Source of the DNA: a virus
Lineage: Duplodnaviria; Caudoviricetes
IMG/VR virus record: IMGVR_UViG_3300045285_000066
Location: 1-41,683 of that record
DNA: 41,683 bases
Direction: 5' to 3' (one strand)
The notes beneath the pieces were generated by a model. That model worked only from the letters and a program-made list of their open reading frames with translations, was not told where the DNA came from and ran no database searches. The position numbers were made by a program, and so were the translations under genes. Of this stretch, positions 3 through 39,768 are shown one piece after another; position 1 is the first letter of the stretch; each line of letters opens with the position of its first letter.

Positions 3-506
3 GTAATAGTTACACCTAGCGGGTGCTGGAGAGCTGCGCATAGACGCACAGGCAATCCACTGGCGACTCGCGGAGAAAGTGGATACGTGTACGTCAGCGT
101 TGACGGGAGGCACGTATCGTCGCACATGTCAATGTACGAAAAGGAGTGCGGACCAATACCGGATGGGCTTGAAATTGACCATCTGTGCAGAAATAGAGCT
201 TGCTGCAATCCAGCTCACCTTGAGGCTGTCACCCACAAGGTGAACGCTCTGCGCGGCACCAGCTTGGCTGCTGATAGAGCCAAAAAGACGCATTGCGTGC
301 GTGGGCACAGTTTGTCTGGATCTAACCTATACCTGTACCGCGGGCACAGGCAATGCGAGATGTGCAGGCGCATGCGTCTCAAGAGCTGGTGGCGAGACAA
401 CAGGAAAGAGTGTAACAGCAAAGCTGCCGCGTATAGAGCTAACAATCCGGAGCGCGTAGAGCGCTGGAATGCAGCCCGCAGGGCCAAGAGGAGCGCAACT
501 GTATGA
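3..506 (+). CDS. HNH homing endonuclease (5' truncated by the window edge)
   Basis: Frame is open from nt 3 (VIVTPSGCW...). Contains EIDHLCRNRACCNPAHLEAVT HNH motif and a THCxRGH...RxCxxCR zinc module. Lower GC than its neighbours. Confidence 0.9.
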   Translation, partial: VIVTPSGCWRAAHRRTGNPLATRGESGYVYVSVDGRHVSSHMSMYEKECGPIPDGLEIDHLCRNRACCNPAHLEAVTHKVNALRGTSLAADRAKKTHCVRGHSLSGSNLYLYRGHRQCEMCRRMRLKSWWRDNRKECNSKAAAYRANNPERVERWNAARRAKRSATV

Positions 507-23004: not shown

Positions 23005-23449
23005 GACGGCCAGACCTTACCGTTCCACTCTGGAACGTTCCGTGACGGACGCGCCGCTCCATGACGGCCAATCCATTCCCATCGTATCCGCTACATTCGA
23101 GGCCAGTTCGGCCAAGCCTTTCCTCGCGCTGCGCTGCCAAGCCCGACAGGTCCGTACGTAGACGGCCAATCCTGACCGGTACTTGCGCCACCGGACTCCA
23201 CGCCACCGGACGTTGACGGCCAAACCAGACCCGACGAAACGATTCCAGGCGTTCCCGCTCCAAGCCTCTCGAAGACGGCCATGCCATGCGCTACCCATCG
23301 TTGCGATGCACACCTATCCAATCGTTGACGGCCATGCCTTTACGAACGTTACTCATCCGCGCGCTACCCGACAACACGACGCCTTGCCGTACGACGACGG
23401 CCACTCCTAACAGCTCCGCACATTCGCGTCCGCTCCAATCCGGTCGTTG
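23005..23449 (-). ncRNA. Array of 8 putative guide-RNA units built from 5-nt modules (semi-constant triplet plus variable NN)
   Basis: GACGGCCA anchors (+ strand) at 23005, 23063, 23107 (variant TTCGGCCA), 23161, 23215, 23274, 23327 and 23396. Spacings 58, 44, 54, 54, 59, 53, 69 equal 4+5n, two of them 1 nt short. On the - strand the triplets are mostly GGC/GGT/GGA/CGT/CGC/CGA. Confidence 0.85.
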
Positions 23450-23974
23450 TCACTTTGCCCCGGCCGGTACGGTTGTCTTCACCGCGGCGATGAGTCGCCG
23501 CCATGCTGGGTCTGCGTCGAGGCCGAGCGACTCCACCCTAGCGCACGTCGAGCACATCGCGGCGTAGCACTCCAGTGAGAGCTGGCCCAACATGTTCGGA
23601 TCGCCGATCACCTCGCCGAGCGGCCGATACGACCTACGTGCCTCGCCGCCTTCGGCTACCGACATGACCGAGTGGAACATTCGCGCCGGCTTGCCGGTCT
23701 TCACGTTGACGACGTACACGCAACCCAAGAGCGCCTTCGCTCTATCCAGCCAGTGCGACTCCTGAGCCTCTTCCGGCGAGCAGTGGAAGACATCCTTGTG
23801 CGTGATGGCCTTCGGGTCTCGTGAGTAATCCACGAGGCCCTTGGCGGTGAGCGCGCCAACCTTCAGCAGCTCGTTGCCCGCCTTGGAGACGCGCTTGGCA
23901 ACATCTTCTCCGAAGGGTGAGTTCTCCAGCGGAGCAACTTTCCCCTTGCCCTTTAGGGTGCGCGTAGCCATCAC
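23450..23974 (-). CDS. Conserved phage protein, partner of the RAMP-like gene
   Basis: LTAKGLVDYSRDPKAITHKDVF...AQESHWLDRAKALL resembles a phage family I recall as LT...V..ARDP.SPLH..FEW...A...RL..AR.LI. Coupled to the RAMP stop. Confidence 0.7.
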   Translation of the reverse strand: MMATRTLKGKGKVAPLENSPFGEDVAKRVSKAGNELLKVGALTAKGLVDYSRDPKAITHKDVFHCSPEEAQESHWLDRAKALLGCVYVVNVKTGKPARMFHSVMSVAEGGEARRSYRPLGEVIGDPNMLGQLSLECYAAMCSTCARVESLGLDADPAWRRLIAAVKTTVPAGAK

Positions 23975-24711
23975 GCCATCTCCGGAGTGAAGACCTCGCC
24001 GCCCGTGATGCGGAAGCCGCCGTACATGCCCGAGCTCGACTTGCCAGTCAGGCGCCAGTCACCGACGCCGATGGAGCGGCCAGCGTTCAGGAACCAACCG
24101 AAGAGCTGGTCCTTCGACACCTTGCGGGCGTTGAAGCCGATGCGCAATCGGACCTTCCAGTGGTCGAACCGTGGGCGGATGCGGATGTCCACGGTGCCCT
24201 TCTGCCGCGCCACGTCCTGCTGCGGGTACGGCGGGCCGTCTAGGATGAGCGGCACCATGTTGGCGTCGCCTGGTTCGGTGATGATCCAGAACGAGGTCCG
24301 GGCGTCGATCTTGAAGAGATCGTCGTACTGGCTTGCCGCGGTGACTGCCGACTCCTTGAACATCACGGCTGGCATGGCGTAGCGGAACTTGCCGAGCGTG
24401 CCGTTGGCGATGTCATCCTTGCCGGGCCGAGGGCCGATGACGATCAGCGCTTCGAGGAAGCACAGCTCGACATCCTTGGGCTCCTTCTTCACCGACTTCT
24501 TGCCGGCCTGCTTGTCGAGGATCTGCTGCTTGATCCTGGCCGGAAAGTTGTTCTGGAGCATCGGCATCGTGGACTCCAGGTCCAGAATGAGTTCGCCGGT
24601 TGACAGGCCGTGCCAGTCGTCGATCTCGATGCGCTGGAACTTCTTCTCAGCAGGAGAGGCGAGGCGGTTGACTCCGTTGCTCTCGTGCGCCACTGACTTC
24701 TTCGTTGCCAT
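23971..24711 (-). CDS. Cas7/RAMP-like RNA-binding protein (solo, phage-encoded)
   Basis: N-terminal strand LILDLESTMPML, then MPAVMFKESAVTAA, RIRPRFDHWKVRLRI and a C-terminal glycine-rich loop AGRSIGVGDWR...SGMYGGFRI. This is the RAMP motif order. Confidence 0.8.
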   Translation of the reverse strand: MATKKSVAHESNGVNRLASPAEKKFQRIEIDDWHGLSTGELILDLESTMPMLQNNFPARIKQQILDKQAGKKSVKKEPKDVELCFLEALIVIGPRPGKDDIANGTLGKFRYAMPAVMFKESAVTAASQYDDLFKIDARTSFWIITEPGDANMVPLILDGPPYPQQDVARQKGTVDIRIRPRFDHWKVRLRIGFNARKVSKDQLFGWFLNAGRSIGVGDWRLTGKSSSGMYGGFRITGGEVFTPEMA

Positions 24712-24744: not shown

Positions 24745-24773
24745 ACTCTACCAGACCTTGCGGAAACAGTCAA
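24745..24773 (-). promoter_or_regulatory. Sigma70-type promoter for the RAMP operon
   Basis: - strand TTGACT-17 nt-TAGAGT, followed by SD AAAGGA before the ATG at 24711. Confidence 0.7.
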
Positions 24774-24791: not shown

Positions 24792-25100
24792 CTAGTGATG
24801 GATGATTCCGTTCGACTCTCCGCGCGCCTGATCCAGCCTGACTTCAAGCAAGGCGCTCAGGCTCTTCTCTGCTCTCAATTCCGTCTCAACTTGCAGCAGT
24901 CTCTCGTGTAGCGCCTTGCACGCCTCCAGGGCGATGGATAGCTCCAGGTACGGCACTGTGCCCTTGAGCCGGCCTTCGCGGTTGATGCGCTTCCACCATC
25001 CATCGACCTCGATACGCACACTGAGGCCATTCACGTCCTCCAGCACTTGACGGTTGCCGGCCTCGTCCTGCCAGACGATCCTCGGAATGGGGCCGTTCAC
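24792..25100 (-). CDS. Hypothetical protein
   Basis: GTG start overlaps the resolvase stop (GTGA); C-terminal coiled coil. Confidence 0.55.
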   Translation of the reverse strand: MNGPIPRIVWQDEAGNRQVLEDVNGLSVRIEVDGWWKRINREGRLKGTVPYLELSIALEACKALHERLLQVETELRAEKSLSALLEVRLDQARGESNGIIHH

Positions 25101-25465
25101 TTCATGTTCTCCACGGCTTCGCGCCACCTGGCACCCGTCACCGCGTTCGACAGCCGGCGGAAGTCTGCCAGCCGCAGCATGAGTACCCATTCGGTTGAGC
25201 CATCCTCGCGCATGACGACAGCTGGCACTTTGTCCTCTGCTGTCGTGCTGGCCTCTGCGTCCCGCTCTGCCTGCTCCAGGAAGGAGAGCGCAGCGATCTT
25301 TTTTCTGCGTTTGACCTCCCAGTGGATCGGCGCCTCGGTGAGCACGTCCGACGCCTCCTTGCCGCTGACCTGAGCGGAACGCTTGGCGTCGGCCAAGCCC
25401 AAGTGCTCTCGGATGGCGTCCCTGGCCTCTCGCTCGCCGACCTTACCCTTGTTGCGGCTATTCAC
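25097..25465 (-). CDS. Holliday junction resolvase-like PD-(D/E)XK nuclease
   Basis: NSRNKGKVGERE...SDV...WEVKR motif. Confidence 0.8.
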   Translation of the reverse strand: MNSRNKGKVGEREARDAIREHLGLADAKRSAQVSGKEASDVLTEAPIHWEVKRRKKIAALSFLEQAERDAEASTTAEDKVPAVVMREDGSTEWVLMLRLADFRRLSNAVTGARWREAVENMK

Positions 25466-27007: not shown

Positions 27008-28195
27008 ATGACTCAGCCTGATATCCTCTTCGTCATTTTCGACGATTTGTGGATAGGTGATGTCACGCCTACCCTGATGCCGAACGCTACAGCCTTCGCG
27101 GCAACGGGCGGCGCGCGCACCTTCACCCACTGCTACTCGATGCCGGTCTGCTCGCAGTCGAGAGCTTGCATGCTGTACGGCAAGTACGGGCGCAACCTCA
27201 GCCCGCCCATCATCGGCGGCATGGACTCCAGCGCCGGCCCGGAGCCCGACAGCGACATGGAGACGGTCGCCACGCTGCTCCAGGACAACGGCTACCAGAC
27301 GTGCCTGGTCGGCAAGTGGCATGGCGGCCGGAACCCGTTCAACGCGAGCAGCCTGTACGTGGGCGCCCCGCAAGCGCGCGGCTTCCAGTCGTGGGTGGCC
27401 GGTACCCCAGACAACATCGACGACTTCTACTCCTGGCCACGAGTAGACGACGAGGGCGCTGGCGTGGCCCTGACCACCGAGACCCAGTACGCGACAGCCG
27501 CGCAGCTCGCCGCGGCGCAGGGCTGGTGGGAGACGGCCGACAGCTCGCCGCGCTTCATGCAGGTCAGCTTCAGCGCGCCGCATGGACCCTACAACTTCCC
27601 GCCCACCAATGAGCTCAACGGCTTCGTGAGCACAGCTCACGCGCTCAACCGCCAGAAGTACGAGAGCGAGATCCGCTCGGTGGACTGGGCCTTCGGCGAG
27701 CTCCTGGCGACCGTAGGCTCGGATGCGGTCGTGGTGTGCGTGGGCGACAACGGAACCCCGAACAACGCCCGCGCTCCAGGCCAGCAGGCGAACAAGGTCA
27801 AGGCTACCTGCTACGAGGGCGGCATCCGCGTGCCTCTCGCTGTACGCTCGCCCAAGTACCCGTCTGGCACGAGCGACCGGCTGTGTCACATCGTGGACAT
27901 CCCTGCGACGCTCCTGGTGGCCGCAGGGATCACCGTACCGAGCGGATGGGACGGAAGGTCTCTCACCCTCTCGGCCCGCACCACGGCGCTCTCAGAGGCC
28001 CAGGACGGGGCGAGCGGCGGCGGGCATCTGGTGCGCGCTGCCATGACCAGCCAGTACAAGCTACTGCGCACGGACAGCGACCCGGAAGAGCTCTACAACC
28101 TTCTGACCGACCCGACCGAAGTCGCGCCCCTCAGCCTCACGGCCCCTGCCAACGCCTCCATCCTGGCAACGCTCCGCGAGGTTCTTGACGGCTAA
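27008..28195 (+). CDS. Sulfatase (formylglycine-dependent arylsulfatase family)
   Basis: PDILFVIFDDL, CSQSRACMLYG, VGKWH, APHGP, GDNG, YEGGIRVPL, HIVDIPATL and ELYNLLTDPTE motifs. Confidence 0.92.
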   Translation: MTQPDILFVIFDDLWIGDVTPTLMPNATAFAATGGARTFTHCYSMPVCSQSRACMLYGKYGRNLSPPIIGGMDSSAGPEPDSDMETVATLLQDNGYQTCLVGKWHGGRNPFNASSLYVGAPQARGFQSWVAGTPDNIDDFYSWPRVDDEGAGVALTTETQYATAAQLAAAQGWWETADSSPRFMQVSFSAPHGPYNFPPTNELNGFVSTAHALNRQKYESEIRSVDWAFGELLATVGSDAVVVCVGDNGTPNNARAPGQQANKVKATCYEGGIRVPLAVRSPKYPSGTSDRLCHIVDIPATLLVAAGITVPSGWDGRSLTLSARTTALSEAQDGASGGGHLVRAAMTSQYKLLRTDSDPEELYNLLTDPTEVAPLSLTAPANASILATLREVLDG

Positions 28196-30145
28196 GTGCC
28201 CAAGGCACAGAGGGCTCCAGGCTTCTCAATGGGCAGCGCAGCCGTAGATGTCGTGACTGTAGCTGCCATCACTGGCGGCGGACCGACACAGACGATCACA
28301 GGGAACCTCGGCGGACAGACGCCGAAGGCGGTCATCATCTACGCCACGCGCTGCGTGACGGTCGGCACGATCATCGACGGAGGGATGCTCTCGGTCGGGA
28401 TGACGGACGGCACCAACCAGTTCGTCAACTCCTGGGTGGCTGAGGATGGCGTCGCCAACAACGCGAACTACCACACCAACAGACGCTTCGACAGCGCGAA
28501 GCTGGTGCAGATCTGCGACACCGCAGGCGCTGGCGTCCTGGACGGCGAAGCGTCGTTCAGCAGCTTCGGAGCGAACACCGTCACGATCAGCTGGAACGAC
28601 CTCCCGAGCACTGCGGTCCAGCTTGTGGTGGTCTTCTTCTATGGCAGCGCTCTGAGCGCTGCGGTCGGACAGATCACGGCATCGAGCACGCAAGATCTGA
28701 GCGCGACTGTCTCCGGATTGGCCTTCGCCCCCAACGCGCTGCTGTTCGCCACGGCTTTGAATGCCTATGCGGCCGGTGGAACGACAGCCACGGACAGCGC
28801 TTCGATTGGCGTCGCCGTCACGCAAGGCGGCACGATCACTCAATCCGGGCTCGGATGGGTGAACCGAGACGGAGGCGGCACGACGGCGACCGTCGGCAGC
28901 ACGATGCTGCGCAACGACGCCTGCATGGCACGCCTCAGCGTAACAGCGGGCGGCACCGGCTCGCTGGTGGCATCCTACGATGTGACGAGCTTCACCAACG
29001 ACGGCTTCGTTATGTTCACGCGCGTCGGCTCGTCTCCGGTCGTTGCGATGTACCTGGCGCTGAACACGGATGGTCAGCGAGTGTGGGTGGGCAATCCTTC
29101 GCTCACCACAAGCTCAACTGGCGACAAGGCGATCACGTCGCCGGGATGGAAGCCGACCGCGCTCTTTATGTGCGGCACGGCGATCAACACCATCAACACC
29201 CAGGCGGATGACACGCAGGCGACGCACGTCTCGATCGGCGTGGCCACGGCGTCCAGCCAGGCATCAGCCTCCTACGAGGTGAAGGATGCCGTGGCTAACT
29301 CGGACACCCGCTGCCTGGTGCAGTCCAAGATCGTCGCCGTGCCAGACGACGTAGGCACGATCGACTGGAGCGGCAGCATCACGACCTTCGATGCGACCGG
29401 CTTCACGCTCAACGTCGATGACGCCTCGGCAGCCGACAGGTTGGTGTGGGCCTTCGCCATCGAGCAGCCCTTCTTGGCGATCGGCGATACCGAGCAGATC
29501 TCGGACTCGCCCGTCCTCAAGATCACCATTCAGCGCCGGGTGTCGAACGACACCGAGAACATCTCGGACACGCCGCGCCTCTTGGTGACGATCGACCGCA
29601 GGGTCTCGAACGACACCGAACAGATCTCAGACAACGCGATCCTGGCGGTGACGATCAACCGCCGAGTGGTCGCCGAGGTGGAGCAGATCTCCGACTCAGC
29701 CATCTTCGCCACCACAGACCGCAAGGTCTTCGGAGACACGGAGCAGATCAGCGACGCAGCCATCTTCCGGGTCACGTCGGACAGGACGACGTTCAACGAC
29801 ACCGAGCAGATCAGCGAGGCCGCGATCCTGGTGCGCGGCAACATCGCCTCGTTCTCCGAGACCGAGCAGGTGATCGACTCCATCGTCACCCTGCTTCAGG
29901 CGTCGATGGGCGCGACGGTCTTCGGTGACGTGGAGGACATCAGCGATGCCGCAGTCCTGGCGCTGCGCACGGCCTTCATGGGCTTCAGCGAGACCGAGCA
30001 GATCAGCGATGCGGCGGTGCTGCGCCTTGGCCGGGTGCTGGTGGTGAACGAGATCGTGGACATCCTGGACGGCTTCGTGGGTGGCGGCTCTGGTGGCCTG
30101 CACGCCATCAAGCTCAAGCGGGCTGGGAGGGTCTTCCAGTGGTAG
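28196..30145 (+). CDS. Tail fiber/appendage protein with C-terminal DTEQISD repeats (start may be 28229)
   Basis: T/G/A/S-rich beta protein with about 10 C-terminal repeats of 20-23 aa. Confidence 0.65.
   Translation: MPKAQRAPGFSMGSAAVDVVTVAAITGGGPTQTITGNLGGQTPKAVIIYATRCVTVGTIIDGGMLSVGMTDGTNQFVNSWVAEDGVANNANYHTNRRFDSAKLVQICDTAGAGVLDGEASFSSFGANTVTISWNDLPSTAVQLVVVFFYGSALSAAVGQITASSTQDLSATVSGLAFAPNALLFATALNAYAAGGTTATDSASIGVAVTQGGTITQSGLGWVNRDGGGTTATVGSTMLRNDACMARLSVTAGGTGSLVASYDVTSFTNDGFVMFTRVGSSPVVAMYLALNTDGQRVWVGNPSLTTSSTGDKAITSPGWKPTALFMCGTAINTINTQADDTQATHVSIGVATASSQASASYEVKDAVANSDTRCLVQSKIVAVPDDVGTIDWSGSITTFDATGFTLNVDDASAADRLVWAFAIEQPFLAIGDTEQISDSPVLKITIQRRVSNDTENISDTPRLLVTIDRRVSNDTEQISDNAILAVTINRRVVAEVEQISDSAIFATTDRKVFGDTEQISDAAIFRVTSDRTTFNDTEQISEAAILVRGNIASFSETEQVIDSIVTLLQASMGATVFGDVEDISDAAVLALRTAFMGFSETEQISDAAVLRLGRVLVVNEIVDILDGFVGGGSGGLHAIKLKRAGRVFQW
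29483..30070 (+). repeat. Coding tandem repeat, ~60-69 bp units encoding (G/N/S)(D/E)TEQISD...
   Basis: Recurrent gacaccgagcagatc-like units; three further copies at about 31365..31510. Confidence 0.8.
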
Positions 30146-31644: not shown

Positions 31645-32175
31645 ATGAGCTCGGAGCCGAGAGTCTACAAATCGTGCCAGAACTACCGAGGGCAGTACCC
31701 TGTCCCGCCGGAGCTCATGCGGCGCTTCTGGGCTGGCGTCGGCAAGCGTTCCTTTGATGTCTGCTGGCCGTTCCGCAACGGAAAGTGGTACGGGCAGATC
31801 CAGCACGAAGGAGAACTCGTGCGCACACACCGCCTGAGCTGGATCATCCACAACGGCGAGATTCCTCCGCGCGGTTGCATCTGCCACAAGTGCGACAACC
31901 CGCCGTGCAGCAACCCGACGCACCTGTTCCTGGGCAGCTACCGCGACAACATCATGGATGCCCGCGCCAAGGGGCGCATGGTGACAACAGAAGCGTGCAT
32001 ACGGCGCGGAGAGGCAAACAACAAAGCCAAACTCACGGCGGCGAAGGTCACGGAAATCAGGGCGCTATACGCAACCGCCACGCGCAATCAGGTCCAGCTG
32101 GCCTCCGACTACAGCGTAACGCAAGCAGCAATCTGGGCTGTCCTCAACAGGAAGACGTGGAAGCATGTCCAGTGA
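31645..32175 (+). CDS. HNH homing endonuclease with C-terminal HTH
   Basis: CWPF...YG...THRLSW...ICHKCDNPPCSNPTHLFLG...DN..D and AKLT...V.EIR motifs. Confidence 0.92.
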   Translation: MSSEPRVYKSCQNYRGQYPVPPELMRRFWAGVGKRSFDVCWPFRNGKWYGQIQHEGELVRTHRLSWIIHNGEIPPRGCICHKCDNPPCSNPTHLFLGSYRDNIMDARAKGRMVTTEACIRRGEANNKAKLTAAKVTEIRALYATATRNQVQLASDYSVTQAAIWAVLNRKTWKHVQ

Positions 32176-32556: not shown

Positions 32557-32703
32557 ATGCCCAGCAAATCAGCCAAGCAAGCCCGCCTGATGGCAGCCGC
32601 ATGCCACGGCAAGACCCGCAACAAGATCAGCAAGAAAGTAGCTTGTGAATTCAACCGCAGCGATCGAGGAACAGGCATCCTCCGCGGCAAGCGCCGTAAG
32701 TAA
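32557..32703 (+). CDS. 48-aa basic phage protein (below the ORF-track cut-off)
   Basis: MPSKSAKQARLMAAACHGKTRNKISKKVACEFNRSD... matches the recurrent small phage family MPSKS.KQAR.MAA..H...VAKEF. Confidence 0.7.
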   Translation: MPSKSAKQARLMAAACHGKTRNKISKKVACEFNRSDRGTGILRGKRRK

Positions 32704-33739
32704 GCGCTGCACGCGCTGCAAGTTAGAGAAGCACACCTCGGCCTTCCTATGGAAGCGCCCTAGACCTAACCGGGCTGGAGAATGGGCCTCGCGGTGCCGA
32801 GACTGCACCAGCTTCCGCCTTCGCGAAATGCGCGCTGAGAGCAAGCGTGTGGCCGCAAGCCTCCCTGAGTCGTTCCCTGAGAGCAAGGTGTGCAGCAACT
32901 GCAAGGTCGAGAAGCCGCGCGCTGAGTTCCACAAGCGCCGCAGCTACACCAAGTGGATCCTGAAGAGCGAGTGCAAAGCATGCACCCGCATCCTGACACG
33001 CGCCTGGTGCCACAAGAACCCAGAGCGCACCAAGGACCGTGCACGTGAGTACCACCGCAGAATGGCTTCCAACGCCAAGCTGGCAGCCAAGCTGACGCCC
33101 GAGCAGCTGGACGTAGCGCGTCGGATGCTGATCGACCACCCGCAAGACCTAGCCAACGAGGAAGAACGAGCGGCCTACGCTCGCGGCTTCATGGCTGGCG
33201 CCAAGCGCACGCACGAAGAAGGTGAGCACTTCGAGCGCCTGAAAGACCTCTGCCACCGCGTAGCCTCAGAGGGCAAGGTCTGGGGGCACGCATACGAGGA
33301 TCGTCTTTCGGCGGCCTACGAGGGCCTGCTAGCATTCATCCGTGGCAGCCACCGGCGCGACTTCAACGACGTAGAGCATGAGCGCAAGGTCGCAGCCAAG
33401 GCGATCCGCTACAGCCTGATGGATCATGCACGAGCGAATGGCCCGCGCACGCGCGGGGGGGCGCAGCGCTATCAGCCTGCCGTTGGCCACGCCGATGAAG
33501 AATTCTGTCCGCTTGAGGCATCAGCGGTTGCGCCGCAGTCCGCGTTGCCATCCGAGGCCCTAGACCTCATCGACATCGAGCCTCGCTCCAGGGCGATACT
33601 GGAGGGCATCCTGGATGGCAGGACGTACAAGGAGATGGGTGAAAAGTTCGGCATCACCGAAAGCCGCGCATGCAAGCTGGCCAAGGAGGTAGGCCAAGAC
33701 CACCCAGAGCTAGAGAGCATGCTTCTTGCGGCTCTCTAG
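32645..33739 (+). CDS. Tandem zinc-ribbon domains fused to a sigma70-family (FliA-like) region 2 plus region 4
   Basis: CTRC/CRDC and CSNC/CKAC pairs. DRLSAAYEGLL...AKAIRYSLMDHAR fits region 2; GRTYKEMGEKFGITESRACKL fits the region 4 HTH. Confidence 0.7.
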   Translation: MNSTAAIEEQASSAASAVSKRCTRCKLEKHTSAFLWKRPRPNRAGEWASRCRDCTSFRLREMRAESKRVAASLPESFPESKVCSNCKVEKPRAEFHKRRSYTKWILKSECKACTRILTRAWCHKNPERTKDRAREYHRRMASNAKLAAKLTPEQLDVARRMLIDHPQDLANEEERAAYARGFMAGAKRTHEEGEHFERLKDLCHRVASEGKVWGHAYEDRLSAAYEGLLAFIRGSHRRDFNDVEHERKVAAKAIRYSLMDHARANGPRTRGGAQRYQPAVGHADEEFCPLEASAVAPQSALPSEALDLIDIEPRSRAILEGILDGRTYKEMGEKFGITESRACKLAKEVGQDHPELESMLLAAL

Positions 33740-38439: not shown

Positions 38440-38576
38440 CTTGTCTTCGTCCCTTCTTCATAGCGGGCTGCGTGATGTGCTCGTGCTCGAAGTGCGGCAA
38501 CCGTAAGTCGTCCACCGACACATACGCCTAATAGAAAAAAGAATACAGCGTAGAATATAAATCCTGTCAGTGTCAT
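38430..38576 (-). CDS. Small membrane protein
   Basis: MTLTGFIFYAVFFFLLGVCVGG; ATGA coupling. Confidence 0.5.
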   Translation of the reverse strand: MTLTGFIFYAVFFFLLGVCVGGRLTVAALRARAHHAARYEEGTKTRWS

Positions 38577-39334
38577 TTGTAGCACCCTCCGCGCTCCTGC
38601 CCCACGGAGCAGTATGGGTGTTTGCACTTCCAGCTCTTCTGTCCCTTGACCAAGGGTAGCTCTGGGTAGCTGGTAGGGTCGAGTGTGCCTTGCGCATGAC
38701 GGATAAGGATACCTTCAACCTCGCGTAGGCGGGTCTGATACCGCTCTTCCAGCTCTTCCGTCCATGGCACCTCCAGCTCGATGAGCTGGCCGCCCTTGAC
38801 GCCCTTCCTGGCGTCCGAGTCCTTGGCCTCGTAGACGATGAAGGATCGGATGGTCTCCGGGCGCTTGGTGGGCTTTGTGTGTTCGTCGTAGTCACCAGCC
38901 AGCGAGTACACATTTGCCTCTGCGATGCCATCCCGGTACGCGTGCACCTGGAGCTTGTAGTCCTCGCTCACGCCTTCGCTGGACAGCAAGCCAGCGCCGT
39001 AGCTGCCCACGGTCTTGAAGTCCACCAGGGTACGCAGGCTCGGGATCCATAGGTCTGCCGTGCCTGTGAGGGTGAACTTCCCTGCGGGCAGGCGCACGGG
39101 CACCTGAGAGCGTGCGTCGGGCCAGATCTGTTTGGAAGCAGCTTCCAGGGCTTCGCCGCGCTGGTGGCCGAGCTCGAATGTGCGGCGGGTCTCGGGTGAG
39201 AGCGGGAAAGGCTCCATGCCCACCTGGAGCCAGGCCAGCTTGCGCAGACAATCGCCGAGGCTAGAGGGCGAGATGCGGAACTCGCGTTCCTCTTTCTGCT
39301 CGGCGTACCAGGCGTCTATGGCGTCAGCTATCAC
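38573..39334 (-). CDS. Cas4-like PD-(D/E)XK exonuclease
   Basis: ISPSSLGDCLRK, GTAD, LVDFKT, QVHAY and C-terminal C...C...C (four-Cys Fe-S pattern). Confidence 0.85.
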   Translation of the reverse strand: MIADAIDAWYAEQKEEREFRISPSSLGDCLRKLAWLQVGMEPFPLSPETRRTFELGHQRGEALEAASKQIWPDARSQVPVRLPAGKFTLTGTADLWIPSLRTLVDFKTVGSYGAGLLSSEGVSEDYKLQVHAYRDGIAEANVYSLAGDYDEHTKPTKRPETIRSFIVYEAKDSDARKGVKGGQLIELEVPWTEELEERYQTRLREVEGILIRHAQGTLDPTSYPELPLVKGQKSWKCKHPYCSVGQERGGCYK

Positions 39335-39768
39335 TTCGATTTGCCCTCCATGTATCTCCTCTGCGCCATCGCCCTACATTTACGGCACAAGCGATGCCGT
39401 CCACTTAGATATGTGTTGCTGTCATCCAGCGCGTGTCCCCTCCAGCAGGATTCAGCGGATGCACGACGAGCGGCCGAGATCGGCACTCCGATTCTCCACC
39501 CTTGGTCGCCATTGAAGCCCACAGGCACCACCTGTAGGTGGTCTCTACGGACACATTTGCGGTTATGGCACATGTGGTCTATCTCCTTGCCGGAGATGTC
39601 CATCTCGTATATGTACTCGGCAGCAATCCTATGCGCTAGTCTGCACCGTCCTTTGAAGTTGAATATACCGTAACCATTGTCGGTTGCGCCTAGCCATTCC
39701 CAGCATGATGAATCAACGCGGTTGACCTTCTCCATGAAGCGATCCAGTAGCGGCCGTTCTGCGATCAC
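39331..39768 (-). CDS. HNH homing endonuclease (same family as 3..506)
   Basis: CWEWLGA..NGYG...AHR...IDHMCHNRKCVRRDHL and CWRGH...RLCRKC motifs. Confidence 0.9.
   Translation of the reverse strand: MIAERPLLDRFMEKVNRVDSSCWEWLGATDNGYGIFNFKGRCRLAHRIAAEYIYEMDISGKEIDHMCHNRKCVRRDHLQVVPVGFNGDQGWRIGVPISAARRASAESCWRGHALDDSNTYLSGRHRLCRKCRAMAQRRYMEGKSK

Follow-up and report, generated by a model that had tools for sequence, protein, structure and literature searches.

Unit U1 of a guide array in the phage sequence studied here is very probably a VIPR guide matching the codons of the H-x-x-R box of a tyrosine integrase, and the phage Vipr protein would be expected to silence that integrase. The evidence consists of the vipr–vap–array layout of the locus, a perfect in-phase match, the protein family of the target and the lineage specificity of the residues read by the guide. 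Counting against this reading are the lack of an exact match in GTDB genomes, the missing link between the host of the phage and the target lineage, the other eight units, which do not match the target above background, the many non-canonical scaffold triplets and the shortness of the target contigs.

Vipr locus and guide array

The window, i.e., the whole stretch of DNA analysed, is a virus record of 41,683 nucleotides (41.7 kb, GC content 63%) containing portal, structural, nuclease and replication-type genes. The locus in question constitutes a VIPR system whose array is staggered-like and lacks a tail (Table 1). At E ≤ 1, the 246-aa ORF matches a single PDB sequence, SUSP1 Vipr (E 3.3e-4); the match spans residues 176–221, comprising the thumb and the G-D-W-R loop. 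The predicted structure of this protein is of modest quality (pLDDT 61) and its top Foldseek matches are Cas7/Csm3 (E 3e-4); both results agree with a minimal RAMP that has an RRM core, a thumb and a G-loop. A search with the single Vipr protein as a query revealed no close relatives with DNA in viral contigs, and an alignment of six Vipr homologues led to 25 distant viral loci. Most of the relatives' loci that were displayed contain GGY/NN arrays with 4-base junctions, commonly AGGC or AGTC, whereas the junction in the window is CGTC.

The 174-aa ORF adjacent to vipr belongs to a family found near vipr in 17/25 viral and 2/6 genome loci; since this family is present in 17 of the 25 viral vipr loci, the ORF is regarded as a vap, a candidate accessory gene assigned by locus context. 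The model of the vap product is well folded and has no PDB match at E ≤ 0.001, and its matches in the Atlas are viral clusters only. The scan that yielded the promoter candidate found two sites in the region, compared with 0.5 expected.

The array comprises minus-strand units with a period of five bases, in which variable dinucleotides (NN) alternate with fixed triplets, as in pentamer repeats with a GGY or related consensus. Eight units had been counted in the initial annotation; parsing gives nine instead, of which two contain a one-base phase slip. The 13 variable dinucleotides given for U1 were exact, with 3-base scaffolds between them. Between consecutive units stand GGC and another four bases, with the phase shifted by one, as in the relatives. 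The units are separated by these seven fixed bases only, and the tail of about 40 nt, conserved and structured, that characterises type II is absent. A CRISPR-type repeat array was not found in the window. In U0 and U2, one scaffold each is cut to two bases, possibly marking hidden unit boundaries.

Table 1. Coordinates of the vipr locus and of other features of the window
Feature	Position	Strand	Basis or remark
vipr, 246 aa, RAMP-like, G-loop G-D-W-R	23971..24711	-	SUSP1 Vipr match; Cas7/Csm3 folds
vap candidate of 174 aa that overlaps the vipr stop	23450..23974	-	family near vipr
sigma70-like promoter candidate upstream of vipr	24745..24773	-	consensus match only
vrRNA array, 9 units, GGC + 4-base junctions, staggered-like, no structured tail	23005..23449	-	parse; unit starts 23005, 23044, 23063, 23107, 23161, 23215, 23274, 23327, 23396
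U0, nearest to vap, with a one-base phase slip	23396..23449	-	no target found
U1, integrase-matching guide, 13 NN at 23334-23395 plus junction	23327..23395	-	parse; 26/26 in-phase match
U2, one-base phase slip	23274..23326	-	no target found
U3, 11 NN	23215..23273	-	no convincing target, best 20/22
U4, 10 NN	23161..23214	-	19/20 antisense in-phase matches in 4/25 viral loci
U5, 10 NN, degenerate junction	23107..23160	-	16-base core matches IS1595 transposases
U6, U7, U8, with 8, 3 and 7 NN, short terminal units	23005..23106	-	
Sulfatase	27008..28195		PF00884, E 2.8e-32; unusual auxiliary gene for a phage
Endonuclease VII/HNH-like N-terminus fused to ECF sigma-like region	32645..33739		
Additional HNH genes	87..506; 31645..32175; 39331..39768		
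Cas4-domain exonuclease	38573..39334		ordinary phage gene
RusA-like resolvase	25097..25465		ordinary phage gene
63-base unit, two copies	29534..29662		within a 649-aa ORF

Match of unit U1 to a tyrosine integrase

With every third target base skipped, U1 had been decoded in the initial annotation as the H-x-x-R box of tyrosine recombinases, and in-phase matches in integrase genes had been predicted. A search pattern composed of 24 bases of U1 with a one-base skip, the first dinucleotide being left out, found three exact matches in metagenome contigs and none in 185,579 GTDB genomes. The left-out dinucleotide also matches in all three contigs, raising the agreement to 26/26; in each contig the skipped base is codon position 3, the reading frame is ILDFHALRTTFVT, and the match sits on the H-x-x-R box, as predicted. 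The one-base skip with a skipped wobble base is thereby seen, from sequence comparison, for one of the nine units. The target footprint is 38 bp and covers 13 codons. The three contigs are 86–97% identical and therefore count as one lineage; at the 39 target bases they show no difference at all and thus do not themselves test variation at the wobble positions. The guide RNA corresponds to the minus strand and would hence pair with the coding strand of the integrase.

The partial target ORFs score 25 bits against PF00589, just below the cut-off of 27.1, and their full-length relative P0007 (98% identical) is a member of this family (E 1.7e-16, 60.9 bits). The motif of P0007 aligns with the H-x-L-R of XerA, and P0007 also aligns with lambda Int; the target is thus a PF00589 catalytic domain with the R and H-x-x-R motifs. 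The target contigs (1.2–3.1 kb) contain the integrase, an ORF without assigned function and two HTH genes; the genes following the integrase are of the HTH_31/HTH_3 (XRE-type) and HTH_17 (excisionase-like) families. This predicted gene set fits an island or a satellite, contigs of at most 3.1 kb being too short to decide. No protein homology was detected between the target contigs and the phage, and no tRNA was found beside the fetched integrases. In the window itself, the target-family profile detected no integrase (best E-value 1.1), in line with the initial annotation.

The paper that described VIPR systems reported a rule of 1-nt skips, the skipping of wobble positions, the argument that synonymous escape is thereby blocked and repression on either strand (bioRxiv 10.64898/2026.04.26.720920). 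By analogy with the published VIPR work, Vipr would coat the guide RNA, its subunits gripping the scaffold triplets, while the NN would pair with DNA with one base skipped, and binding would repress transcription on either strand. Further assumptions are that the array is expressed and processed, that this Vipr tolerates the relaxed scaffold, that the target element resides in the host of the phage as an island or satellite, and that this host is related to Kiritimatiellia; silencing of the integrase would keep a rival element integrated and prevent its excision while the phage infects. The earlier proposal that the guide targets an integrase is borne out as regards the in-phase match, and silencing by the guide is its predicted part.

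Lineage specificity, synonymous escape and the host

The best 120 of 169 homologues of the target integrase were taken, and 119 could be parsed. All 13 codon classes are fitted by only two of these 119, the two closest to the target; at the position where the guide reads F, 112/119 have W, and the family consensus at positions 1–4 is V-R-D-W. The family tolerates other residues at positions 1, 2, 4, 9 and 11. As only 2/119 of these homologues fit all 13 codons, the guide reads lineage-specific residues. The named homologues among those listed belong to Kiritimatiellia or Verrucomicrobia (41–60% identity).

This specificity bears on an unlikely, though not negligible, alternative, according to which the guide targets another tyrosine integrase in the real host of the phage and the lineage of L009–L011 matches through a shared motif. 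The H-A-L-R-T-T core does recur in unrelated integrase subfamilies (L002, L003, L005, L007 and L008, at 19–21/26), and L019, of another integrase subfamily, reaches 23/26. The main reading is supported by searches among 201 genomes from the class to which G001, a genome encoding integrases 52–53% identical, belongs (the class being taken from homologue names): four three-mismatch sites were revealed, each of them in phase on an H-x-L-R motif, and no sites for the reversed pattern; L019–L021 were judged to be H-x-L-R by eye, not by Pfam. The alternative also draws on the lack of a link between the host of the phage and the target lineage: a homologue of the phage portal was found in 0/401 genomes sampled from the phylum of this lineage, no portal relatives with a taxon name were found, and distant vipr homologues with adjacent GGY/NN tracts occur in only 6/201 genomes of the target class (L095–L100, in genomes G197, G163, G017, G122, G067 and G144). 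A related phage, L101/G498 (58% complete), gave no vipr match, and L010, one of the targets, was found in 0 contigs of run X1, which is not proof of its absence. What argues for the L009–L011 lineage as the target is that the guide matches rare states of the family (I-L-D-F, 2/119 of the parsed homologues) and that the leucine codon choices, which differ between codon 2 (TT-type) and codon 7 (CT-type), are all matched.

If the guide is indeed directed at this integrase, the claim that synonymous escape would be largely blocked holds for 10/13 codons and fails for Leu2, Leu7 and Arg8, which allow single synonymous changes at positions read by the guide; in the relatives L013 and L018, the first base of the Leu7 codon already varies. 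A comparison of six distinct loci gives identities of 86, 83 and 39% for codon positions 1, 2 and 3, respectively, values that are usual for coding DNA and come from a set where 4/6 loci were selected by the match.

Scaffold of the array

The scaffold consensus, in the RNA sense, is [GC]-G-[ACT]. In the seven units free of phase slips, the middle base of the triplet is G in 51/55 cases (binomial p ~4e-17); the canonical GGY is present in 17/55 triplets, and 19/55 end in A. The internal triplets of U1 are GGY in 4/12 cases and have the middle G in 11/12. This raises the question of whether the guide is a relic, once directed against an integrase, with a scaffold too eroded to support Vipr loading. 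The low GGY content of U1 would suit such decay, as would the two slipped units, the unit with only three NN and the far more GGY-rich arrays of most relatives displayed. The reading is nevertheless improbable: the reading frames of vipr and vap are open and have close homologues, random decay would not leave 26/26 matching NN bases together with a middle G kept in 11/12 triplets, and degenerate scaffolds are described in the VIPR papers: bioRxiv 10.64898/2026.04.26.720920 mentions staggered arrays, degenerate scaffolds and NNNNG-type scaffolds, and a further VIPR preprint reports non-canonical scaffolds. The structure preprint describes G-loop contacts, the requirement of SUSP1 Vipr D177 for silencing and the exclusion of purines at triplet position 3 by SUSP1 Vipr, with which the 19/55 triplets ending in A are at odds; the match of the 246-aa protein covers the D-W-R G-loop containing D177. 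The locus can serve as a test case for how far the scaffold tolerates purines at triplet position 3, a point of relevance to the programming of VIPR tools.

Control searches

Searches of viral contigs with the 16-base core of U1 returned eight loci, five of which are in-phase PF00589 ORFs, one of them below the curated cut-off. The initial annotation had expected no integrase matches with other gap sizes, and in-phase integrase matches above shuffled-guide controls; the two-base skip in viral contigs and the shuffles on the fetched loci agree with this. A two-base skip gave integrases at 0/21 loci, and the 16-base cores of three other units (U3, U4 and U5) at 0/41; at these control loci, the Pfam scan covered the longest frame spanning the match. 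In 168 kb of fetched loci plus the window, skips of 0 and 2 reached 17/26 at most and a skip of 3 returned the array itself; 300 shuffles of the guide gave no more than 20/26 there, a figure that gauges the background only, since the set includes loci found with the guide. At the level of codon classes, 200 shuffles reached at most 9/13 in 30 integrases, compared with 11 for the real order.

The chance of 26 fixed bases matching is 2e-17 to 3e-16 per position. If the collection is assumed to have about 1e12 positions, the expectation for nine units at four gap sizes is no more than about 0.01 matches, and post-hoc choice therefore does not explain the match. A coincidence favoured by such choice and by the abundance of integrase genes is hardly credible, as the family, the phase and the 13th dinucleotide had all been predicted before the search, even though the unit was chosen after the fact, the matches amount to effectively one independent lineage and GTDB gave no exact match.

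Comparison with known systems

As in the VIPR systems of bioRxiv 10.64898/2026.04.26.720920, the locus combines vipr, vap and pentamer-repeat vrRNAs with a 1-nt skip at wobble positions; the systems described there target rival mobile elements, as U1 would, to judge by its match. The locus differs from that of SUSP1 in lacking the tailed type II layout and in its relaxed scaffold. The RAMP fold and the G-loop predicted for Vipr resemble those of the Cas7/Csm3 filaments of class 1 CRISPR systems; unlike the latter, the locus has no CRISPR-type repeats, and its specificity resides in spaced dinucleotides, not in a contiguous spacer. The Cas4-like nuclease encoded elsewhere in the window could bear on guide acquisition.

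The closest published parallel is SUSP1 vrRNA4, which, according to the preprint text, lies on active-site codons of the recombinase of the F5 satellite and blocks excision of this satellite (bioRxiv 10.64898/2026.10.15.759431). Like U1, vrRNA4 matches the catalytic region of a recombinase of a rival element in wobble phase, and it was also argued to block synonymous escape (bioRxiv 10.64898/2026.10.15.759431). The footprint of vrRNA4 is 18 bp, beside a catalytic serine, in E. coli, compared with 38 bp here, where a tyrosine recombinase is matched at its H-x-x-R box; vrRNA4 was shown to stop excision, and for U1 the target is predicted from sequence. The words "integrase" and "recombinase" are absent from the main text of bioRxiv 10.64898/2026.04.26.720920, and "integrase" from its supplement PDF, while tyrosine-integrase targets may stand in its data S3; "tyrosine" has no occurrence in the text of bioRxiv 10.64898/2026.10.15.759431, the supplements of which may list such targets.

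The one-base skip, the wobble alignment and the targeting of recombinases have already been published, and the present case is a new example and not a new mechanism. What is likely new is the tyrosine, not serine, recombinase as a target, an element probably related to Kiritimatiellia and the relaxed scaffold. The perfect 13-codon guide–target sequence match independently confirms, in a natural case remote from E. coli and Pseudomonas, the 1-nt skip code of VIPR, and would extend recombinase targeting from serine to tyrosine recombinases. Decoded guides can also nominate hosts for orphan phages.

Other units of the array

The remaining eight units gave nothing above background against the target contigs or related elements, and no self-targets of units above background were found in the window. 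For U0, U2, U6, U7 and U8, no target was present among the fetched loci and the window. The 16-base cores of U3, U4 and U5 returned 12, 25 and 4 viral loci, with best matches of 20/22, 19/20 and 17/20, respectively, and no complete target among them. A run resembling H-x-L-R was found in 0/134 units parsed from the 25 viral and 6 genome vipr loci.

The core of U5 matches IS1595 (ISXO2-like) transposases in wobble phase at 3/4 viral loci (L066, L068 and L069), of which L068 and L069 are alike; the flanking NN of U5 mismatch at the IS1595 loci (16/20). In the 201 genomes, U5 gave no sites with up to two mismatches, and the reversed control gave one. The U5 result is a lead, but it also calls for caution: since the core falls on a conserved IS1595 motif without extension, in-phase 16-base matches can arise without being proof of targeting. 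It is a rather doubtful conjecture that DNA-mobility enzymes of every kind (serine recombinase, tyrosine integrase and possibly IS1595) are hit at their active-site codons by VIPR phages in a convergent manner, here by way of a relaxed scaffold, a PVC-phylum host and selected guides; if true, it would place such conflict in a PVC-phylum host, for which none had been shown before, and would make guides selected, non-random samples of rival genomes.

The 19/20 matches of U4 are antisense and in wobble phase on a Gly/Pro-rich stretch of long ORFs without a Pfam family; they occur at L074, L080 and L087, which form one family, and at L078. The pattern of U4 is GC-rich and was found at 25 loci, so chance is possible. 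In U3, position 23227, which lies in an NN, has another base in the run X1 contig that covers it at a depth of about 6; this is one of only two differences listed across 4 kb, and either a guide polymorphism or an assembly difference is possible. The junction-adjacent NN starts with A on the plus strand in 8/9 units, so that the 3'-most base of the guide is nearly always U; this near-constant 3' U may reflect a constraint on processing or loading, by which the choice of targets would be limited too.
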